The translations under genes were made by a program, and so were the position numbers. Below the pieces are notes generated by a model that had not been told where the DNA came from, searched no databases, and saw only the letters and a program-made list of their open reading frames with translations. From a bacterium (lineage in GTDB: Bacteria; JAAXHH01), in contig OZ241920.1 of NCBI GenBank assembly GCA_965203885.1, positions 3,073,476 to 3,137,475 on the forward strand: a stretch of DNA of 64,000 nucleotides. The letters are read 5' to 3'. Shown in pieces: positions 8,293-62,011 of this stretch; the stretch's first letter is position 1; each line of letters opens with the position of its first letter.

Positions 8293-9216
8293 ATGAACCC
8301 TGCCGAACCCCACGTAACCATCGTCATACTCAACCTGAACCGGGAATCGGACACGCTGGAGTGCCTGGAGTCCGTCGCGCGCATGACCTACCCGTCCTTT
8401 TCGGTCGTGGTCGTGGACAACGGATCGACCGACGGGTCGCCGGACGCCATCGAGGGCTGGGGACGGGAGAACCTGCCCCTGGCACTCATTCGCAACGCCG
8501 ATAACCGGGGTTTCGCCGGGGGCGGCAACCAGGGCATGCGCCACGCGCTGGCGGCCGGCACCGATTACGTGTTCCTGTTGAACGACGATACGGTGGTAGA
8601 TCCCGACGTATTGGATATCCTCGTTCGAGCGGCGGAACGTTCCGGCGATATCGGCATGGTGGGTCCCAAGATATACCAGTATGGAAAGGGCAAGATACTC
8701 GACTCGGCGGGTACGCGTACGATACCGTGGCTGGCCCAGGGGTTCCTCGTCGGCCACGGGGAAGAGGACCGGGGCCAGTACGATGCCACGGCCGAGATGC
8801 CCTACATCACGGGGACGGCGCTCCTGGTCAAGCGCGCCGTGCTGGAGCAGGTCGGACTGATGGATGAGGACTATTTTTGCTACTTCGATGACTTCGACTG
8901 GGGAATGCGGACGCGGGAAGCCGGTTACAAACTCTATCTGGAGCCCAGGGCGGTGATCCGCCACAAGGGGACGCAGACCATCGGTTTAAACAGTCCATTC
9001 TATATGCTTCACATGGTGCGCAGCAGGATTCTGTTCGCGAGAAAACACGTGCCGCACCTGCCGTTTCTGTTCGCGTTCCTGCCTTACCTTTTTCTGTATC
9101 GGTATCTACGTCCGCTCGCTATCTTGGTCATCCGCCGCAGGTGGACCCACCTGGGCGCGCTCCATCGCGGGATCCGGGAGGGATTCGCCGCCCGGATCAC
9201 GTCGGGCAACGGTTGA
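8293..9216 (+). CDS. family 2 glycosyltransferase (GT-A fold)
   Basis: 'VTIVILNLNRESDTLECLESV...VVVDNGSTDGS' and 'LLNDDTVVDPD' DxD region, typical GT2. Confidence 0.8.
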   Translation: MNPAEPHVTIVILNLNRESDTLECLESVARMTYPSFSVVVVDNGSTDGSPDAIEGWGRENLPLALIRNADNRGFAGGGNQGMRHALAAGTDYVFLLNDDTVVDPDVLDILVRAAERSGDIGMVGPKIYQYGKGKILDSAGTRTIPWLAQGFLVGHGEEDRGQYDATAEMPYITGTALLVKRAVLEQVGLMDEDYFCYFDDFDWGMRTREAGYKLYLEPRAVIRHKGTQTIGLNSPFYMLHMVRSRILFARKHVPHLPFLFAFLPYLFLYRYLRPLAILVIRRRWTHLGALHRGIREGFAARITSGNG

Positions 9217-9291
9217 AGGGAACGGTTGAAGGGAACGACTGAAGGCACCGGTTTGATACACCAGTCGTGTCCTTCGTTCATGGCGCGGCAA

Positions 9292-9362
9292 CAGACCGGG
9301 CAGACCGTACTGACCCAGCAGACCGGGCAGACCGGGCAGACCATACAGACCGTATAGACCGT
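9292..9362. repeat. 9-bp microsatellite (cagaccggg-like unit x ~8, imperfect) in GT2-yfhO intergenic region
   Basis: Read directly: cagaccggg cagaccgta ctgacccag cagaccggg cagaccggg cagaccata cagaccgta tagaccgtt. Confidence 0.85.
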
Positions 9363-9374
9363 TAAAGGGCATTC

Positions 9375-11870
9375 ATGGCGAAGAAACAACCACATACGCG
9401 ACCCGATCGGCGCAGAACCGGCGGAGCGGACAGAACCCGCGGCTCGGCCAGGGACCGGCGGGAACGCTCGGCGCGCACGGAACGCACGGCACGAACCTTG
9501 CATCCGTACGTCCAGGATGCCTTGTTCTGCCTGGTGATCGCGGTGTTGGCCATCTTCGTTTACCGCGGCTATATCATCGAAGGCAAGATGGACATCCGGC
9601 CAGATTTCATTGGCCAGGCCATTCCCTTCGACCGCTTCGCGCAGGACTTCGCAAGCCGGTCCGGCGAAACGCCCCTCTGGTACCCCCACATCTTCGGCGG
9701 CATGCCCTTCCAGGCCAGCGGCACCTATCACCATCTGCAGTACAGCTTCGAAGCCCTGGTCAACGCCGTCCTGCCGGACGGGCTCATCGGCGCGCTGCAC
9801 GGCCGCTTCTTCTTCCACCTGCTCCTCGGCGCGGTCTCCATGTTCTTCCTGGCGCGGGCCCTGTCGCTCTCGCGGCCCGCGTCTTTCGTCGCCGCGGCGG
9901 CCTTCGTGTTCTCCACCCACATGATGGCCACGGAACACGCGAACCGGTTCATCTGCTTCATGCACGTCCCCCTCGTCTTCCTGGCCGCCTACCGCGTATT
10001 CGATCGCGGCAGGGTGTTCGACATGGTATTGCTCGGCGGCGCCTTCGGCTCGCAGTTGTGTTCCTTTCATCCCCAGATCGCCTTCTACACGGCCATGCTG
10101 ATCGGCCTGTACGCCGCGTACGCCGTGATCAACGACCTGCGGGACCGGGCGCCCGCCGGCATCATGCTGAGGAAATCCGGTCTTTTCGCGGGCGGAATCG
10201 TCCTGGCCCTGGCCGTCGCGGCGGTGCTCGTGCTGCCCATGCAGGAATACGCGCAGTATTCCGTCCGGGGCCTCTCCGTCGGCGGCAGCGGCGTCAACGC
10301 CCCCTTCGCCACGAGCTGGTCGTTCCCGCCCATCGAAGTGCTGACCTTCCTCATCCCATCCTTCGCCGGGTTCGGCGGGCTCTTCTACTGGGGGGACATG
10401 CCCTTCACGGACTTTCCCAACTACCTGGGCGTCGTCGTTTTCGTGCTGGCGGTATCGGGCGTAATCCTTCGCCCTTCGCGCATGACCGCCTTCCTCGTCC
10501 TGGCGGCCGCGCTGGCGCTCCTGGTCTCCTTCGGGCGGCACCTGCCCCCCGTATCCTACGTCATGCTCCACTTCGTCCCCTTCTTCGCCAAGTTCCGCGC
10601 GCCGGTCATGATCCTGGTGATCGTGCAGTTCGCGGCCGCCCTGCTGGCGGGATACGGCGTGCACGCGCTGATCGAACGGATCCGCGCGGGCCGGGACAGT
10701 CTGAGGCGCTTCGCGACGCGGCTGTGCTGCGTGGCCGGCGGGGTGCTCCTGCTGGTCCTGGTCCTGACCGTGTTCGAGTCCTCCTTCCAGTCCTTCATGA
10801 CGGGCGTCTACGTACAGGCGGACGCGGCCCACGGTTCGCGCGCGGGCCTCCTGGACAACGCGGATTACCACGCCCGGCTCAACGCCATGCGTTTCGGCCT
10901 GCTCATGGCCGACCTGTGGCTCATGACGCTGTTCCTCTGCGCGGCGGCCGCGCTGCTCTTCGCCACCCGCAAGGCGGGCCCGGCGCTGTTTGCCGCCGGC
11001 GTGAGCGCACTCCTCGCCGTCGACCTGCTGCTCGTGGCCTCGCGGGTCGTGAACCCCGAAGACGATCCCGCGCGGATCCAGGCCCATTACGCCGCCCGCG
11101 AAAACGAGATCGTGAAGGCCCTGGAGGAAGACACCGGCCTGTACCGCATCCTCCCGCTGTCCGAGTTCTCGTCCAACGAGTACGGATACTTCGGCATCTC
11201 CAGCATCGGCGGCTACCACGCCGCCAAACTCGGTATCTACCAGGAACTCATGGACCGGGTGGGGTTCAGCTCCTTTCCGGTTTTGAACATGCTCAATACC
11301 CGTTACCTTGTGTCCCGGCAGCCTCTACCGGAATCCGGGCTCTCGCCCGTGGCCGAGTCCGACGGCGGATACCTCTACCGGAACGACGCCGCGCTGCCGC
11401 GGGCCTTCCTGGTGGACAGCGTGCAAGTCGTCGCCGGGAAGGACGCCGTCTTCGAAGCGTTGAACGAGCCCGGGTTCGAACCCGGCGAGTACGCGATCCT
11501 GGAGCAGCCCGTCCGGGAGGCGTTGGGGCCGCTGGGCGAATCCTCCGTGGAGATCACGGCGCACACGCCCCATCGCATCGAGGTGGCGGTGGAGGCCGAC
11601 GCGCCGGGCCTGCTGGTGCTCAGCGAGATCTACTATCCGGCCGGGTGGAGCGCCACGATCGACGGCGAGCCCGCCGAGATATACAAGACCAACTACGTGC
11701 TGCGCTCCGTGGCCGTCCCGGCGGGCCGTCATGAAGTCGTCATGACCTTTGCCCCGTCGAGCTTTGCCACGGGACTCCTCGTGAGCCGGATCGCCGGCAC
11801 GCTGGTCCTGGCCGGGTTGATCGCCGCGGGCGCGATGCGCATCAGAAAGCGCCTGAAGGCCGGGGCCTGA
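9375..11870 (+). CDS. yfhO: YfhO family membrane glycosyltransferase (GT-C fold)
   Basis: 831 aa; many N-terminal TM helices (e.g. 'LWYPHIFGGMPFQASGTYHHL', 'FFLARALSL'), large C-terminal extracytoplasmic domain ending in a TM anchor; adjacent GtrB-like GT2 reproduces the known CsbB-YfhO / GtrB-GT-C pairing. Confidence 0.75.
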   Translation: MAKKQPHTRPDRRRTGGADRTRGSARDRRERSARTERTARTLHPYVQDALFCLVIAVLAIFVYRGYIIEGKMDIRPDFIGQAIPFDRFAQDFASRSGETPLWYPHIFGGMPFQASGTYHHLQYSFEALVNAVLPDGLIGALHGRFFFHLLLGAVSMFFLARALSLSRPASFVAAAAFVFSTHMMATEHANRFICFMHVPLVFLAAYRVFDRGRVFDMVLLGGAFGSQLCSFHPQIAFYTAMLIGLYAAYAVINDLRDRAPAGIMLRKSGLFAGGIVLALAVAAVLVLPMQEYAQYSVRGLSVGGSGVNAPFATSWSFPPIEVLTFLIPSFAGFGGLFYWGDMPFTDFPNYLGVVVFVLAVSGVILRPSRMTAFLVLAAALALLVSFGRHLPPVSYVMLHFVPFFAKFRAPVMILVIVQFAAALLAGYGVHALIERIRAGRDSLRRFATRLCCVAGGVLLLVLVLTVFESSFQSFMTGVYVQADAAHGSRAGLLDNADYHARLNAMRFGLLMADLWLMTLFLCAAAALLFATRKAGPALFAAGVSALLAVDLLLVASRVVNPEDDPARIQAHYAARENEIVKALEEDTGLYRILPLSEFSSNEYGYFGISSIGGYHAAKLGIYQELMDRVGFSSFPVLNMLNTRYLVSRQPLPESGLSPVAESDGGYLYRNDAALPRAFLVDSVQVVAGKDAVFEALNEPGFEPGEYAILEQPVREALGPLGESSVEITAHTPHRIEVAVEADAPGLLVLSEIYYPAGWSATIDGEPAEIYKTNYVLRSVAVPAGRHEVVMTFAPSSFATGLLVSRIAGTLVLAGLIAAGAMRIRKRLKAGA

Positions 11871-55892: not shown

Positions 55893-56171
55893 GTTACCTT
55901 AACGGGTTCCGGCGATGCACGTACTCAATAGGCACCGCGAGACGATGCTTGCGGTTTGGAGCCAATGGTTCGGCGACGGGGCCAGCTTGAAATCCGGTTG
56001 GCCGGCATCACGCCTGCGCGGCCGGCATCCTGCCGCCATCAGGAACAAAAAGCGACCCTCCGGCAACGGGAACAGTGGTTCCGCGCCGGAGCGGCCGCCA
56101 TGGTTGTCAGGTTCTCTGCTTGCTCTTTGTTGTCCGGGTTACGGTCGAGGCCCGACCGGTTGTTTCGAGCC

Positions 56172-56666
56172 TCATCCAGGCTTCATTTCGGGCGCGCCGT
56201 CGTCCCCCGGCGAAATGACCACGGCCTCCTCGCCGAGATGGCCCGCGATGGTCTGCGACAACTCGTTCAGGTCGGTCCGGCAGAAACCCGTGTTGCTGTC
56301 CAGGATCCCGCCGCTGTCATCCATGAGGAACCACGTCGGCACGTTCGTCAGTCCGAAATCCGAGGAGGCCCAGTGGGTGGCGTCGTACACGTTCTCGAAG
56401 GTCGCGCCGTGCTCTTCCATGAACGCCCGCGTGTCCTCCGGCGTGTCCTGCGAGACGCCCACTACCCGGAATCCACCGTTGCCGCCGTAGGCCTGGTGGA
56501 TCTTCTCGAAATAGGGGGCGCTGAACTTGCAGGTCCCGCAGCCCACCTTGTAGAAGACCGCCAGCAGCCAGCCGCCGTCCGCCTGGTCGCCCAGCGACGT
56601 CGACTGTCCGTCCGCGTCTTCCAGCGTGACTTCCGGGGCCGCGACCCCGGCTTCCAGGAACGCCAT
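56172..56666 (-). CDS. thioredoxin-like thiol-disulfide oxidoreductase (TlpA/AhpC-TSA redoxin family)
   Basis: 'FYKVGCGTCKF' CxxC active site in a thioredoxin fold. Confidence 0.7.
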   Translation of the reverse strand: MAFLEAGVAAPEVTLEDADGQSTSLGDQADGGWLLAVFYKVGCGTCKFSAPYFEKIHQAYGGNGGFRVVGVSQDTPEDTRAFMEEHGATFENVYDATHWASSDFGLTNVPTWFLMDDSGGILDSNTGFCRTDLNELSQTIAGHLGEEAVVISPGDDGAPEMKPG

Positions 56667-56999
56667 GAATTACTCCCGTATGGGTTGGGATATGGTATTA
56701 AGAAGTACTCGATTACGACATGCTTAGCAGGTGACAACGATCGTTTTTTGTACGAATGTGCTCTAATACCTATATTAATCGGATACACGAAAAGTGTCAA
56801 CGATCCTGTGGTATCGTAACTGGAACGGATCGCCAAGTTTTGAATGCCCATATCGAGCTATGGAAGCGCTCGTCCGAACCATTAAAGGCTGGGAAGCTAG
56901 CTCAAAACTACCAAGAAACCTCGAATCTCTTTGAAAGATCAATGTTTAGACTATATTACGAATTAAACGGCCAAGGTCTTCTACACGCGGAGTTTAATC

Positions 57000-57209
57000 A
57001 TGGCGAAGCTGCAATCGACGACTTTCCAAACTGAGATTCCCACCGGTCTGGCTTCGCAGGCCCAAAAACTGGTCGAGGCCGGCTGGTTTCGTGATCTCGA
57101 CGAACTCGTCCTGGACGCACTGCGACGTTTTCTGGAGTCCCATCGTGAAGAATTGATGGAAGATTCTATTCGACAAGACCTCGAGTGGGGTCTGACAGGC
57201 GATGAATAA
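57000..57209 (+). CDS. type II antitoxin, UPF0175-like (partner of DUF3368 PIN toxins)
   Basis: 69 aa; 'LVEAGWFRDLDELVLDALRRFLESH' resembles UPF0175 antitoxins; overlaps the downstream PIN gene by 8 bp. Confidence 0.55.
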   Translation: MAKLQSTTFQTEIPTGLASQAQKLVEAGWFRDLDELVLDALRRFLESHREELMEDSIRQDLEWGLTGDE

Positions 57210-57699
57210 ACCGACGCCAAGCGTTGTATGCGATGCCGGTCCCCTGATACATCTCGACGAACTCGACGCACTGTCGTTGTTGAACGATTTCGATCCCGTA
57301 CTTGTGCCCGAACAAGTCGGGCAAGAGGTATCCCATCATCGTCCGGGCGTGCTTGACGATTCCGTCTTGCGCTGTCAACAGGTCGGTGTCGTCATACCCT
57401 CGGATCCATCCTTTCAAATCCTGGCGCAAACCCTATCTCTGGATATCGGTGAACAAGCGGCATTGAAACTGATGCAAGGGCATCCTCAAGCTATCTTCCT
57501 GACGGATGACGCCGCCGCCCGGCTGGCTGCGTTCACCCTCGGCTATCGCGTGCATGGAAGTATTGGTATTCTGGTACGTGCTATTCGACGCCATCAGCTG
57601 TCAAGAGACGAAGTTAAAGAGATACTATGTACGATTCCCCGCAGGTCTACGCTCCACATCCGCCCGGATTTACTTGTGGATATAATCAAAAAGCTGTGA
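57202..57699 (+). CDS. PIN-domain toxin (DUF3368 / PIN_3-like, VapC-type)
   Basis: 'VVCDAGPLIHLDELDAL' N-terminal PIN acidic motif; 'IFLTDDAAARLAAFTLG' second acidic motif; length ~165 aa. Confidence 0.7.
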   Translation: MNKPTPSVVCDAGPLIHLDELDALSLLNDFDPVLVPEQVGQEVSHHRPGVLDDSVLRCQQVGVVIPSDPSFQILAQTLSLDIGEQAALKLMQGHPQAIFLTDDAAARLAAFTLGYRVHGSIGILVRAIRRHQLSRDEVKEILCTIPRRSTLHIRPDLLVDIIKKL

Positions 57700-57870
57700 T
57701 TCGCAGCTTGATGCGTTCTTCTCTCCCAGGCATTCGTCTATCCGTTTGATATCCCGCCAACGGCCTGGTTACTGTCGATCATATCCCTGCGCCATCAACA
57801 GTAAATCGTCGTTCTATTTTTGATCTTTGAGCCCGTTGAGTCGTCTTATTCTACGTAACGATTCGCTTTT

Positions 57871-59775
57871 TTGATCTTGCGCGAGGCTCCAATGACAACC
57901 ACCACACACGACGACACGTATAGCATCCTGCAATGCCTGCAGGGAAACGCCAACGCCTTCGAATCCTTGGTCCGGCGGTATCAGAACGCCGCTTTCGCCG
58001 TGGCGCTGGGCTACCTCCGGGACCGTACGGACGCCGAGGACGTTGTGCAGGATGCTTTTGTCGCGGCCTTCTGCAAGCTGTCGCAACTGAAAGATCCGGC
58101 CGTTTTCGGCAACTGGTTTCACCGTATCGTAGTCAACCGTTGCAAGGAGTGGAGCCGTCGTAACAAGGCGGGTCGTCTGAGCCGAGTCGATCCGGATGCT
58201 GAACACATTCGCGACGAATTCCCCCAAGCGGACCGTATGCATCGGGAATACATCGAGTGTCTAGAGCTATGGGATGAAGTCGAAAAGCTACCCGAACATT
58301 ACCGCCAGGTCGTCACGCTGTACTATTACACCGGTTTTTCACTGAAAGAAATCGCCACGTTTCTCGACATTCCCGAATCCACGGCGAGAGGGCGGCTGTA
58401 TCAATCCCGAATCCGACTGAGAAACGCGTTATCGCCCCAGGAGAAGGAGACCATCGCCATGAGTCAGATCGATGTCACTGAAGATGTCCAGGATGTGGTC
58501 TGCAAGATCGCTAGGGAGGACTTTAAAGAAAAGACCGATATGGGTGACGTGGAAAACATCGTCCTCTATTGCGGCGTCAGCACGGAAGTCGAGATAAAAC
58601 AGGCCGAAGGAGATCAGGTCGTAATCGAAGGCTCGAAGATCGCGTTGGGTCTGACGGAGGACGAAGCGCGAAGTAACCTCAGTGGGTTTCATGTTTCTCA
58701 TGACCAGGTCGACGATTACATGGAAACGGGTCCGCACGACGGAGCGTTGTTTCTCAGCGCCAAGCACTGGTTTCCTGATAACGTCCCGTACACCGAACCT
58801 ATCAGCAAGTACTGGAAACGCGATCTGAAGAACGAAAGCGTACTCGACGATAAGCGGGGCGGTGTCAGAATGGTCGACGCCTTACCGGATTCGAAGCATG
58901 AAATCAATGCGTTCCTGCCGTTGCCGGGACCTGCGGAGAAAGGCCTGGGGAAGTCGATACGGGTCACGGTTCACGCTTCGGATGCGCGACCCATCAGAAT
59001 GACCAGAGATGCCGTGTCAGACAACGTCGAGCGTATATTCCGGTCCATGCAGTCCGATAACACCAGGCTATACGGACCCGCGACGTACTGCCATCTTTCG
59101 GTCGCTGTTCCCGCCGGCGCGAACATCTCGATTTTCAGGTCGGACAAGGTGAATGTCGATGGCCTGGATGGTTCACTGATGGCTTATTCCTGCTCTTCTT
59201 GCAGGGTAAGCGAGATAACGGGGGACGTTTACCTGTTCAACAGCATGTTTTCGGATATAGGAAGCGTGGGCGGCTCGTTGTACCAGCGCATGTACGGGTA
59301 CGGCGGCGATGGAGGCTGCAGCATGGACGGCAACATGCTGCGACGAATTCCCTATCAGCACGAAGGAAAGATCGAAGCGGTCATGGGCGACGTGGATATC
59401 GACGTCGGATGCATGGACTTGAACGCGCTCGACCTCGAGGGCGATATCGCCATTTACAACCGATATGGCAGAACCCGGGTGGCTCAGAGTGGCTACAACA
59501 AAGGGCAGCGGTGCTATGTCCGAAGTGTTTCCGGCGACGTTGACCTGGTCCTGGACAGGAAAAGGGCGAAAGACGTCCGCCTGGTCATGCATACCGTTTG
59601 CGGTGTGGCGAAGTACGGGGAGTTGAAAAAGTTAATGCCCATCATATCATGGGCACACAACGAATACTGGATGACGCTGGCATCAACGTACGACTTCGCA
59701 AATCCAGACATCACGGTCTTAACGGAAAGCGGCACCGTCGACATCATCGTGGCGAAGAACGGCAAGCACAGTTGA
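57871..59775 (+). CDS. ECF-type sigma-70 factor (regions 2 and 4) fused to a ~440-aa C-terminal domain with Toastrack/DUF4097-like 'GDVD(I/L)' repeats; no transmembrane segment evident
   Basis: N-terminal 'ESLVRRYQNAAFAVALGYLRDRTDAEDVVQDAFVAAFCKL' (sigma r2) and 'LPEHYRQVVTLYYYTGFSLKEIATFLDIPESTARGRLYQSRIRL' (r4 HTH). C-terminal 'SGDVDLVL', 'GDVDIDVG', 'GDVYLFN', 'SGTVDIIV' beta-helix-like repeats and Cys-rich segment (SCSSC, GGCSMDG, GCMD). Lower GC than genome. Confidence 0.7.
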   Translation: MILREAPMTTTTHDDTYSILQCLQGNANAFESLVRRYQNAAFAVALGYLRDRTDAEDVVQDAFVAAFCKLSQLKDPAVFGNWFHRIVVNRCKEWSRRNKAGRLSRVDPDAEHIRDEFPQADRMHREYIECLELWDEVEKLPEHYRQVVTLYYYTGFSLKEIATFLDIPESTARGRLYQSRIRLRNALSPQEKETIAMSQIDVTEDVQDVVCKIAREDFKEKTDMGDVENIVLYCGVSTEVEIKQAEGDQVVIEGSKIALGLTEDEARSNLSGFHVSHDQVDDYMETGPHDGALFLSAKHWFPDNVPYTEPISKYWKRDLKNESVLDDKRGGVRMVDALPDSKHEINAFLPLPGPAEKGLGKSIRVTVHASDARPIRMTRDAVSDNVERIFRSMQSDNTRLYGPATYCHLSVAVPAGANISIFRSDKVNVDGLDGSLMAYSCSSCRVSEITGDVYLFNSMFSDIGSVGGSLYQRMYGYGGDGGCSMDGNMLRRIPYQHEGKIEAVMGDVDIDVGCMDLNALDLEGDIAIYNRYGRTRVAQSGYNKGQRCYVRSVSGDVDLVLDRKRAKDVRLVMHTVCGVAKYGELKKLMPIISWAHNEYWMTLASTYDFANPDITVLTESGTVDIIVAKNGKHS

Positions 59776-59823
59776 ATGGCCGGCCGTAGATGAACACACG
59801 ATATTTACTCCTCGCGTCAATCC

Positions 59824-60942
59824 TTACTCCTCGGTGACGGTCTCCTCGGGGACGGCCTCCTCGGTGACAGCCTCCGCGGGGAGGGTTCCTACGCCAAGTG
59901 ATGCGGGACCTTTCCTGAACACGAACGGGAACCGCATGCGCATCTTTACACGCTCACCTTTACGCACTGCCGGCGTCCAGACCATTTTCCGAGCAACGTC
60001 CAGCATCAGAGTGTCCACGGCAACGCGACCTGACGACATTTCGACGAAAGCCGCGACCACGTTGCCAGTAGTACCTACCACGACTTGAACCATTGTGATT
60101 CCATCGAAATTGAGATCAACGACATCGGTGGGCATAGTGGGGTGATAGACAGCCTCTGCTATCGTGTCCACCGTTGTGGTCGTATAGATGCCGGCTTCTT
60201 CGTCGACCTCCAGTTCCGGGAGCCTGGTCGGAGGCGGTTGGACGGCCAAGTCCGGATGGGCTGAAGTAGGCGGTTGGGCGGCCGAGTCCGTTTGGGCTGC
60301 TGAAGACAGTTGGACTTCCGGTTCTGGTTGATCCTCATCGCCTGCGGCGGCAGCAGCCACCATTTTCGAAATCTCCGAGATACGTGCCTCCGCCGAATTG
60401 GTATCGGTGAAATCGACGGGGGACAATTGCAACACATTGCCGGTCCGGTCGATCAATACGCTGTAAGGTGAAGACGGCAGATCAAAGGGCGAATCGACGG
60501 CCAGATACACGGGAAAGCTGTACCTGAATTTCTCCACGATCGGCGTGATCTCCTCGGCCGATTCCGCCTGGAGCACGCCGACAACCGGGACATTGTCCCC
60601 GATCACCGATCCGAATAAAGACATCATGTCGAGGTACATTGGAAATTGCCGCGCCCCAAAAAACAGGAGGAACAAACGCCCCTCACCGAAATTCGGCAGC
60701 TCGGCAGGCTGGCCGTGTTGGTCGACCGCGGGGAAGGGGGCGATAAACGGCGCGCCGAACATCTTTTCCGCCTGGAGCACGCGGATTTCCACCTGGGCGT
60801 TGTATAGCCTGTTCTGCGCATTCTGAAGTTCCCGGATTTGCCGGTCATTGAGCCAGAGGAGGGCGATGCTCAATGCGGCGAGGACCGCGACGGCGACGTA
60901 AAGGTATCGCCGGATGTTGGTACGTGGGGCAGGTGTGGTCAT
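59824..60942 (-). CDS. membrane-anchored TonB C-terminal domain protein with a degenerate (CxxC-less) thioredoxin/TlpA-like central domain and Pro-rich linker
   Basis: N-terminal TM 'YLYVAVAVLAALSIALLWL'; central 'RLFLLFFGARQFPMY...PVYLAVDSPF...SVLIDRTGNV' thioredoxin-like without catalytic cysteines; Pro-rich 'AQPPTSAHPDLAVQPPPTRLPE'; C-terminal 'VVDLNFDGITMVQVVVGTTGNVVAAFVEMSSGRVAVDTLMLDVARKMVWTPAVRKGERV' TonB_C-like. Confidence 0.55.
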   Translation of the reverse strand: MTTPAPRTNIRRYLYVAVAVLAALSIALLWLNDRQIRELQNAQNRLYNAQVEIRVLQAEKMFGAPFIAPFPAVDQHGQPAELPNFGEGRLFLLFFGARQFPMYLDMMSLFGSVIGDNVPVVGVLQAESAEEITPIVEKFRYSFPVYLAVDSPFDLPSSPYSVLIDRTGNVLQLSPVDFTDTNSAEARISEISKMVAAAAAGDEDQPEPEVQLSSAAQTDSAAQPPTSAHPDLAVQPPPTRLPELEVDEEAGIYTTTTVDTIAEAVYHPTMPTDVVDLNFDGITMVQVVVGTTGNVVAAFVEMSSGRVAVDTLMLDVARKMVWTPAVRKGERVKMRMRFPFVFRKGPASLGVGTLPAEAVTEEAVPEETVTEE

Positions 60943-61273
60943 GTCGCTGGTTCCATGGTTAGGGACAATGGTGATGTTTGGGGACAGTTATGATTGGGCA
61001 AATATTACGTAAGGGACAATTGCAGTAAATTGCAATGGTATAGCTTTGCAAACGTCCGGTCAACTGAACTGGTTCCCAAATGCACGACGAATGACGCGCG
61101 AACGGACTGCGCGCGGAAGATTTGGCCTCGAACGACGACGCGCGGCCTGCGTGCGGTCATTCGAATTTCTATTCAATTCAGCATTCCTTCACGTTTCCCG
61201 CACGAGATTTTCTTCCGAAACACGACTATTCCTGAATAACACCGAATCACACACCCGGTTTCAGGCAGGCGTC

Positions 61274-62011
61274 GTGCATCCATCTAAACGAAATACACCC
61301 GATCCCCCGCTGATCCGCTTCCAGGATCTCCGCCGGTCCTTCCCGATGGGCGGGGAGCGCATTACCGCGCTCAGGGGCGTCTCCGCGGTCATTCGCCTGG
61401 GCGAATACGTGGCCGTGATGGGGCAGTCCGGGTCCGGAAAGTCCACCCTTATGAACATCCTGGGCTGCATGGACAGGCCGACGGCGGGCCGCTACGAACT
61501 CGACGGGAGGCCGGTGGAAGCCCTGTCGGAAGACGAGCAGGCCATGATCCGCAACCGGAAGATCGGGTTCGTGTTCCAGGCCTTCAACCTGCTTCCGAGA
61601 ATGGATGCCCTGCGCAACGTGGAGCTGCCGCTGCTCTACCGCGGAATGGACGGAAAGGAGCGGCGAGGTCGCGCCATGGAAGCCCTGGAATCGGTGGGCG
61701 TCGGCGACCGGACCCGCCACAGGCCCAACGAGATGTCGGGCGGTCAACGGCAGCGCGTGGCCATCGCCCGCGCGCTGGTGGGCGAGCCTTCCATCATTCT
61801 GGCGGACGAGCCCACGGGGAACCTGGACAGCGGGACCGGTGAGGAGATCATGGCCCTTTTCGACCGTCTGAACGGGGAAGGCCATACGATCGTGCTGGTG
61901 ACCCACGAAGCGCACGTGGCCCGGCACTGCAGGCGGATCGTCCGTCTGCGCGACGGGCGGATCGAGATGGACCGTTGGATATCGCGGCCGCCGAGCGCGA
62001 TGGCCGGATGA
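61274..62011 (+). CDS. ABC transporter ATP-binding protein (LolD/MacB/FtsE-like), probable GTG start
   Basis: 'GQSGSGKSTLMNILG' Walker A, 'MSGGQRQRVAIARAL' signature, 'ILADEPTGNLD' Walker B; no ATG upstream of Walker A in frame, GTG at 61274. Confidence 0.8.
   Translation: MHPSKRNTPDPPLIRFQDLRRSFPMGGERITALRGVSAVIRLGEYVAVMGQSGSGKSTLMNILGCMDRPTAGRYELDGRPVEALSEDEQAMIRNRKIGFVFQAFNLLPRMDALRNVELPLLYRGMDGKERRGRAMEALESVGVGDRTRHRPNEMSGGQRQRVAIARALVGEPSIILADEPTGNLDSGTGEEIMALFDRLNGEGHTIVLVTHEAHVARHCRRIVRLRDGRIEMDRWISRPPSAMAG

Follow-up and report, generated by a model that had tools for sequence, protein, structure and literature searches.

A family of single-chain ECF sigma factors with a predicted Toastrack-type C-terminal domain and a putative internal start at the domain junction

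The locus described here raises the question of how an extracytoplasmic function (ECF) sigma factor might be regulated when it runs on, within one open reading frame (ORF), into a long soluble domain. It lies in a stretch of bacterial DNA of 64,000 nucleotides (contig OZ241920.1, positions 3,073,476 to 3,137,475), which is called the window throughout, and the original prediction, made from the letters alone, had described its product as a single-chain soluble ECF sigma factor with an extension of about 440 aa. We hold with moderate confidence that the product is a cytoplasmic ECF sigma factor whose Toastrack regulator is built into the same chain, that the gene has its own promoter, and that an internal start would supply the free C-terminal domain (C-domain). 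The gene is organized as follows.

57892..59775, + strand: fusion gene, 627 codons plus stop codon, uninterrupted ORF
57967..58167, + strand: sigma region 2, aa 26-92 (PF04542, E=7.9e-13)
58264..58419, + strand: sigma region 4, aa 125-176 (PF08281, Sigma70_r4_2, E=2.1e-12)
58444..58461, + strand: putative internal start, AAGGAG at 58444-58449, 9-nt spacer, ATG of Met190 at 58459-58461
58459..59772, + strand: C-terminal domain, aa 190-627, predicted Toastrack-type beta-helix, interrupted at about aa 255-390 by an alpha/beta subdomain

The ORF, which closes with the stop codon at 59773-59775 on the + strand, is open from a TTG at 57871, as had been predicted, or from an ATG at 57892; because the homologs begin with the consensus MTTxTHDD (47 sequences), the ATG rather than the TTG is the likely start, giving a protein of 627 aa. 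Domain matches and the modelled core place this protein among the ECF (group 4) sigma-70 factors. In addition to regions 2 and 4, Pfam matched Sigma70_ECF (PF07638, E=2.9e-6), the NCBIfam ECF superfamily model TIGR02937 scored 88.4 bits against a cut-off of 42.9, and in Foldseek the sigma core resembled chains of SigH, AlgU, SigE, SigW and CnrH (E 2e-6 to 1e-4), with a predicted local distance difference test (pLDDT) score of 50-65 for the model in that part. No other sigma region, including regions 1.1 and 3, was matched in the fusion protein by Pfam or NCBIfam, and the NCBIfam scores for specific sigma equivalogs or subfamilies (SigW, SigM, RpoE, SigE etc.) all lay far under their cut-offs (for example, 103 versus 204 for PRK11922). 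The absence of a membrane span was confirmed, since no 19-residue Kyte-Doolittle window in the fusion protein exceeds a mean of 1.13; by the same measure, the transmembrane segment of the neighbouring TonB_C protein reaches 2.35.

The fusion is genuine and belongs to a family. A search of 5.8 billion clustered proteins recovered about 80 clusters of 619-628 aa matching at 56-99% identity over full coverage, and the full-length architecture is kept from 99% to ~30% identity. The few named clusters are labelled just 'sigma-70 family' and come from Gemmatimonadetes metagenome-assembled genomes (MAGs); the family as a whole is confined to MAGs labelled Gemmatimonadota or Latescibacterota. Using tblastn and 20 fetched loci, we found 20 intact full-length genomic copies across independent assemblies, in many cases arranged as a tandem pair of paralogs. 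When a profile of the C-domain was run against 1.84 billion representative proteins, just 142 matches were obtained at E<=1e-3; nearly all full-length matches are proteins of 600-675 aa in which the domain begins at residue ~185-198, and all five divergent matches that were inspected have N-terminal ECF sigma regions 2 and 4. Besides the about 80 clusters, ~60 more divergent 50%-identity clusters keep the 438-aa extension, and on these sequences the association of sigma factor and C-domain is near-obligate. The conserved full-length architecture also disposes of the possibility, raised in the original prediction, that a frameshift or a missed stop codon had joined a normal ECF sigma gene to a downstream anti-sigma gene. 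Such an assembly or annotation artefact has next to no probability, because the same architecture is present in about 80 clusters from independent assemblies, in the 20 intact copies and in relatives of ~30% identity, and the fusion was intact in every independent assembly examined; nothing was found that speaks for it.

A naturally split pair of a sigma gene and a C-domain gene was also sought, and no true split form was found; of the protein entries of 435-447 aa that look like the C-domain alone, eight were inspected and proved to be start miscalls or contig-end truncations. Two entries that seemed to hold the C-domain alone (P0079 at locus L001 and P0078 at L002) have an intact in-frame sigma domain upstream by tblastn, their start having been miscalled at Met190. 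P0077 and P0080 begin at the same Met, the upstream check having covered P0078 and P0079, and P0125, P0132 and P0140 are truncated at contig ends. The fusion gene and its immediate surroundings (window positions 56000-60000) have a GC content of ~55%, compared with ~64-66% elsewhere in the window, and in the close family the fusion genes consistently lie 2-9 GC points under their own loci. The nearest sigma relatives outside the family (P0083-P0099) are ECF fusions of ~950-1030 aa with BNR/sortilin-type beta-propeller domains, some labelled Poribacteria; in these the junction-Met module described below is absent and the segment after sigma region 4 is different.

The nature of the C-domain was addressed by structure modelling and by profiles. 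AlphaFold2, run on an alignment of 14 C-domain sequences, gave a mostly beta model with a pLDDT of 81.5 and a predicted template modelling score (pTM) of 0.83, and pLDDT values of the full-length model lie mostly above 90 across the C-domain and fall below 50 in the linker (aa 182-202). The proteins matched by Foldseek are only 212-241 residues long, yet their alignments stretch over 420-450 query columns; therefore, the model is best read as one Toastrack fold split by an alpha/beta insert of ~130-150 aa, and the fold of the modelled C-domain is Toastrack. The Toastrack/DUF4097-like domain of the original prediction thus stands at the level of the fold but falls short of the Pfam gathering threshold for DUF4097 (12.0-13.7 bits versus 22.9). 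DUF4097 is the sole recurrent Pfam family, appearing sub-threshold in 8 of 14 members (best E 0.0012), and the family profile reaches a protein, P0230 (E=1.6e-4), in a region that Pfam assigns to DUF4097 at E=7.5e-15. The C-domain sequence gave no significant match in the PDB, and Pfam found none of the known ECF extension types (SnoaL-like, TPR, Cys-rich, WD40, ZAS-TM, DUF1835, multi-TM).

In a broad alignment of 36 sequences, the invariant residues are D271, G280-P281-H282, W308, R357, F383, N523/G526/T528 (the NRYGTTR motif) and several glycines; D271, G280-P281-H282, W308 and R357 sit in the insert. The protein has 13 cysteines, and its Cys clusters had prompted the suggestion of a Cys-rich domain that could be gated by redox state or metal. 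This gating is unsupported, because the clusters (SCSSC, GGDGGC and VGCMD) are not conserved in the same alignment and there is no HxxxCxxC motif. Only C61 (30/36), C570 (32/36), C227 (26/36) and C204 (23/36) are widely kept. A regular-expression search gave no HxxxCxxC (ZAS) match, zf-HC2 and RskA did not match either, and no CxC is present in the linker between sigma regions 2 and 4. Proteins of ~530 aa (P0201, P0204, P0210 and P0220), which combine a signal peptide with a coiled coil and a beta-helix and carry no Pfam annotation, match the C-domain in its beta-helix half only (E 1e-9 to 1e-5); as secreted coiled-coil proteins, they were rejected as ancestral anti-sigma factors.

At the junction of the two domains, the DNA of the 20 intact copies reads (A/C)AGGAG-ACC-ATY-GCC-ATG, a Shine-Dalgarno (SD)-like stretch followed by the codon for Met190. 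Glu186 is GAG in 20/20 copies, though the family favours GAA (594 versus 311) and the adjacent Glu codons are mostly GAA. Lys185 is AAG in 17/17 copies and the three Gln substitutions are CAG, by which AGGAG is preserved; a single codon is likewise used for Thr187 (ACC, 16/16) and for Ala189 (GCC, 17/17). In an 8-codon sliding window, the synonymous codon entropy is lowest gene-wide at codons 185-193 (0.30 versus a mean of 1.01), and this minimum has a degeneracy-stratified permutation p=0.012 on 20 phylogenetically related sequences. The same module is seen far beyond the close family. Among the 36 broad-family sequences (~30-40% identity), 33 have the junction Met in place and the remaining three have it 1-3 residues away, and it is the sole residue with at least 90% conservation within aa 177-246. 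An SD-like purine motif (AAAGGA, GGAG, GAGGAGG, AAGGAGG, AGGAGGAG, AGGGAAAGGG, GAGGAG or GGAGGA) stands 6-9 nt before the junction ATG in 8/8 divergent members with DNA, and the linker peptides of divergent members are unrelated (QEKETIAM, EEIDM, EEHAIM, TEELSM, TGEPPM). Other genes of the lineage use AAGGAG-type SDs; the N-terminal starts of the fusion genes have a weak SD or none. The RNA at the internal start shows no excess of structure over shuffled controls (z=+1.31), its centroid structure leaves both SD and ATG unpaired, and no known RNA element around the gene was matched in Rfam at E<=1. Met190 is also the first residue of the miscalled 'stand-alone' C-domain proteins. Taken together, the codon bias, the entropy minimum, the conservation of Met and SD, and the unpaired RNA argue, by inference from sequence, for selection on a ribosome-binding site and a start codon inside the gene. 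Translation from this start would probably yield a free 438-aa C-domain beside the 627-aa fusion. Across bacteria, in-frame internal starts are common, as a genome-wide Ribo-RET survey reports (bioRxiv 10.1101/520783).

Transcription of the gene can be assigned to a candidate promoter whose elements lie directly upstream.

57818..57825, + strand: predicted -35 element (TTTTGATC), at the start of the first copy of a 10-bp repeat (57818-57827)
57842..57849, + strand: predicted -10 element (CGTCTTAT), with CGTC at 57842-57845
57853..57859, + strand: ACGTAAC box, ~8 nt past the -10 CGTC, near the predicted transcription start
57869..57878, + strand: second copy of TTTTGATCTT, in the predicted 5' untranslated region (5'UTR); contains the TTG at 57871

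The 10-bp direct repeat had been proposed as an autoregulatory operator. Two exact copies of the 10-mer TTTTGATCTT do occur in the window, at 57818-57827 and 57869-57878 and nowhere else, and autoregulation is likely, but the direct repeat is not a conserved feature because its copies align to two elements, the -35 box and a lineage-specific 5'UTR block; the repeat was therefore rejected as an operator. In the ortholog alignment, a bipartite motif, TGTTTT(G/A)A(T/C)C-N16-CGTC(T/A/C)(T/A)A, shows fixed spacing and a spacer of varying sequence. The first repeat copy aligns with TTTTTAACC, TTTTGATC or TTTTGACC of the orthologs, 16 nt from CGTC every time, and the TTTTGATCTTTG variant of the -35 box is also found at L006, L007, L011, L017 and L020. 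The second copy aligns with TATCTGATCTTG in the closest orthologs only, its 5'UTR block is absent from the same five loci, and there is no CGTC 16 nt past it. The ACGTAAC box occurs at equal offset in the window, in L001-L011, and in L015 and L017, and it could be an initiator, a discriminator element or a regulator site. A position weight matrix (PWM) was built from 12 sites, and CGTC (CATC in a few copies) is found at the fixed 16-nt spacing in these and in further matches. A bipartite layout with fixed spacing is typical of an ECF promoter, and it is plausible from these motifs that the fusion gene is positively autoregulated from a dedicated ECF-type promoter. When the 64-kb window was scanned, the PWM returned this single site. 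In relatives, PWM sites also precede other genes: at L014 a pair of MacB-type permease genes with fusion paralog A behind them, at L018 a permease and then the fusion, and at L006 (with L017 similar) a DUF2268-like HExxH protein, again ahead of paralog A.

The locus is syntenic in relatives, where the gene order is LipA (-), AhpC (-), [DUF2268, DUF4932], paralog A, [MacB-like permease of 805 aa], paralog B, TonB_C (-), ABC ATPase and ComEC, and the fusion gene of the window is the ortholog of paralog B. Paralog A, the MacB permease, DUF2268 and DUF4932 were found nowhere in the window, which has no second copy of the fusion gene; relatives carry two tandem paralogs. The neighbouring features in the window are listed below.

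57000-57209: RHH-like ORF, weak RHH_8 match
57202-57699: PIN/DUF3368-like ORF, overlapping the RHH-like ORF
59824..60942, - strand: TonB_C-domain protein, convergent (PF03544, E=2e-6), N-terminal transmembrane segment at aa 13-31
61046..62011, + strand: ABC-transporter ATPase ORF, Walker and ABC motifs visible in the translation

The RHH/PIN-like pair (57000-57699), which looks like a toxin-antitoxin module, stands where relatives have DUF2268, DUF4932, paralog A and the MacB permease. The TonB_C neighbour (372 aa) has an N-terminal transmembrane helix, a Pro/Ala-rich linker and the TonB_C domain; it is syntenic in L002-L004 and absent in L001 and L005. The true start of the ABC ATPase is probably internal to its ORF. 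ABC_tran is found at the syntenic position in L001-L005, relatives pair the ATPase with a MacB-type permease upstream of the fusion gene, and MacB/FtsX permeases recur beside the divergent members L027 and L026. The repeated association with MacB-type ABC permeases suggests that the response in Gemmatimonadota is coupled to a transporter. Among the neighbours (toxin-antitoxin pair, AhpC, LipA, TonB_C, ABC ATPase, MacB, DUF2268, DUF4932), no Pfam-detectable anti-sigma domain (zf-HC2, RskA, FecR) was found. As the fusion protein has neither an anti-sigma domain nor a transmembrane helix, the 'sigma/anti-sigma-like fusion' of the original prediction is unsupported in its strict sense. At L024, in a Latescibacteria-labelled MAG, a Peptidase_S41/Tricorn_C1 gene (8821-10119) overlaps the fusion stop codon with 4 nt (ATGA), an arrangement which suggests that the fusion is co-translated, or shares an operon, with this C-terminal processing protease. 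L026 carries a second sigma fusion (9091-10713, - strand; 540 aa) with the same sigma type and junction (…KEMAMHKIDVTDNV…) and an unrelated, non-Toastrack C-domain, which suggests domain swapping downstream of a conserved junction module.

Based on these features, we propose that the 438-aa Toastrack-type beta-helix with its conserved insert would stand in for a separate anti-sigma factor, a short flexible linker joining it to sigma region 4. Transcription from the gene's own ECF-type promoter (TTTTGATC-N16-CGTC) would provide positive autoregulation. In relatives, the same promoter would also drive operons for MacB-type ABC permeases and for DUF2268-peptidase-like proteins in which a paralogous fusion gene comes last, so the physiological output is likely envelope- or efflux-related. 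A published account treats Toastrack as a scaffold on which proteins dock inside the cell, with coupling to transcription factors and to ABC transporters, and independently reports Toastrack genes in operons with ABC ATPase and permease genes and transcription factors (PMC11237479). The C-domain could gate sigma activity through the binding of a partner or ligand on its beta-sheet faces or its insert; the docking partners may be components of MacB-type transporters, and a ligand may be bound in the conserved insert. Such gating would be analogous to that by the TPR, SnoaL and WD40 extensions (ECF42, ECF41 and ECF57) and by the LiaF and VraT Toastrack scaffolds. The free C-domain from the internal start might associate or compete with the fused domain and thereby set the activation threshold. 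We also put forward, tentatively, that one ORF gives two proteins, a fusion made from a weak SD and a free Toastrack domain made from the strong internal AAGGAG-N9-ATG that the family keeps throughout, the free domain acting as a stoichiometric trans-regulator (anti-sigma-like or decoy) of its own sigma factor. In that case, the free domain might form oligomers with the fused one, or the two might compete for a membrane or transporter partner, for example MacB-type permeases.

Several points weigh against the regulated-fusion reading. Every family member comes from an uncultivated MAG, distant members have a heterogeneous genomic context, the sigma part of the full-length AlphaFold2 model is of low confidence (pLDDT 50-65), and the permutation p for the entropy minimum is only 0.012 on 20 related sequences. 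With the MacB permease, DUF2268 and DUF4932 missing and a single promoter match, a regulon cannot be shown in the window. Several relatives carry disrupted copies, namely an insertion sequence (DDE transposase) in paralog A at L005:6467-9564 and, among L011:5434-7303, L017:2890-4173 and L007:5434-7110, a frameshift near residue 243, a deletion of ~residues 224-408 and similarity ending at residue 560; these indicate that the gene is dispensable in some genomes, with turnover of single copies. In addition, a two-gene ancestor could have left the internal SD and ATG behind as a relic, or these could be kept for another reason. In its full form, this alternative, which we consider possible if doubtful, states that the fusion arose by stop-codon loss, that only the full-length product is made, and that the junction is a relic or a translational pause, the Met and purine stretch persisting by protein-level constraint or by SD-like pausing that aids co-translational folding. 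ECF extensions are indeed thought to originate from fusions with neighbouring regulators (PMC8999054), and no genuinely split gene pair was found that would show the C-domain to function independently. However, a relic would decay across divergence to ~30% identity, yet the Met is kept at at least 90%, the SD-like motif is re-encoded by different peptides, and gene callers repeatedly picked the Met190 site as a start (P0077-P0080).

Two further mechanisms would leave the C-domain in control of the sigma factor by other means. Proteolytic release, which we judge rather unlikely, treats the C-domain as a soluble anti-sigma-like inhibitor, so that cleavage of the linker or degradation of the extension frees an active sigma factor of ~20 kDa, either as a cytoplasmic version of the IutY/ECF52 mechanism or by ClpXP-type degradation as proposed for ECF115. 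It is an accepted mechanism for fused sigma/anti-sigma proteins (PMC8999054), and it agrees with a linker (aa 182-202) that is predicted to be disordered (pLDDT <50), with the Peptidase_S41 gene overlapping the fusion 3' end in the divergent L024, and with the DUF2268 HExxH protein co-operonic with paralog A in relatives. However, the protein has no anti-sigma domain, ZAS motif or transmembrane helix, the S41 association is seen in a single lineage, the fusion is cytoplasmic while S41 and DUF2268 proteins usually work outside the cytoplasm, and no conserved cleavage site is evident because the linker apart from Met190 is not conserved. An improbable alternative is a small-molecule sensor in which the insert (D271, GPH282, W308, R357, F383) and NRYGTTR form a ligand pocket, the ligand shifts the C-domain against sigma regions 2 and 4 in the way suggested for SnoaL in ECF41, and the internal SD/ATG is irrelevant. 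The clustering of invariant polar and aromatic residues in the insert and one helix turn of a family that is ~30% identical overall fits this proposal, and conformational change is a known mechanism for ECF41 and ECF238 (PMC8999054). Nevertheless, the Toastrack superfamily is described as a protein-docking scaffold, not a ligand binder (PMC11237479), and the nucleotide-level constraint at Met190 would be left unexplained.

The regulated-fusion reading, in which the C-domain gates the sigma factor and may also be made alone, has several implications. Interest in ECF sigma factors that carry their own regulatory domain comes from their value as compact, orthogonal switches, and for most of the ~26 groups with extensions no mechanism is known. 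The family would add Toastrack as an extension type, while the role of Toastrack in envelope-stress signalling of the LiaF, VraT and PspC types is still unclear; a soluble Toastrack domain coupled to a sigma factor could give a direct transcriptional read-out for Toastrack binding. If the internal start is used, sigma factor and regulator would be nested proteoforms of one gene, and if one ORF gives two proteins, this would be a previously undescribed encoding of ECF control and the first assigned role for a soluble Toastrack domain. The fusion also matters for annotation, as gene callers already mis-split or truncate these genes. To the best of our knowledge, the regulatory biology of Gemmatimonadota has been little studied experimentally.

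Compared with known systems, the fusion has both familiar and distinct features. ECF sigma factors with N- or C-terminal extensions make up at least 26 groups, 19 of them with C-terminal extensions of the SnoaL, TPR, Cys-rich, WD40, ZAS-TM, DUF1835 and multi-TM types, and those with regulatory extensions are typically without an anti-sigma factor (PMC7826278, PMC8999054). The closest parallels are ECF41 (SnoaL-like), ECF42 (TPR) and ECF57 (WD40-like), in which the ECF core also runs directly into a conserved soluble domain (PMC8999054, PMC7826278, PMC3426412), no anti-sigma gene lies nearby, autoregulation is likely, and the extension is expected to control the sigma factor through conformation or a partner. 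In contrast to these groups, the extension here is a predicted 438-aa Toastrack beta-helix with an insert, ~2-3x longer than those of ECF41 and ECF42, a conserved internal SD and ATG stand at the domain junction, and the family is restricted to Gemmatimonadota- or Latescibacterota-labelled MAGs. IutY (ECF243), ECF48, ECF52 and ECF53 (e.g. SCO4117), fused sigma/anti-sigma proteins that proteolysis activates, likewise join an ECF sigma factor and a long C-terminal regulatory part (up to ~400 aa) in one polypeptide, but they have a ZAS or other anti-sigma domain, at least one transmembrane helix and an extracytoplasmic sensor, none of which the fusion has. The Cys-rich ECFs of the CorE/CorE2 type (ECF238) and ECF287/ECF288 resemble it in having cysteines noted in the extension; here, however, the Cys clusters are unconserved and only the single C61, C204, C227 and C570 are widely kept. 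Among Toastrack proteins, LiaF, VraT, YvlB and PspC-Toastrack (DUF4097/DUF2154/DUF2807) are held at the membrane through PspC, LiaI-LiaF-TM or other transmembrane parts and signal to separate regulators, whereas the fusion has no membrane anchor, is covalently joined to its sigma factor, stays under the Pfam threshold and contains the ~130-150-aa insert. A search of the literature, which did not cover the supplementary tables of numbered ECF groups or the ECF Hub models, found no description of a Toastrack-type ECF extension or of this family.

In-frame internal starts that produce C-terminal proteoforms are exemplified by CheA-S, ClpB-80 and IF2-beta. The fusion gene shares with them a strong in-frame SD and ATG at a domain boundary and suppressed synonymous variation, here as a prediction from sequence. 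We know of no ECF sigma factor reported to co-encode its own regulatory domain through an internal start. In conclusion, a single-chain, soluble ECF sigma factor with a Toastrack-like extension is supported for this locus and, because one-component ECF sigma factors with a regulatory C-terminal extension are an already established class (PMC8999054, PMC7826278), the predicted Toastrack domain is a new type of extension and not a new principle, while the nested internal start is potentially novel.

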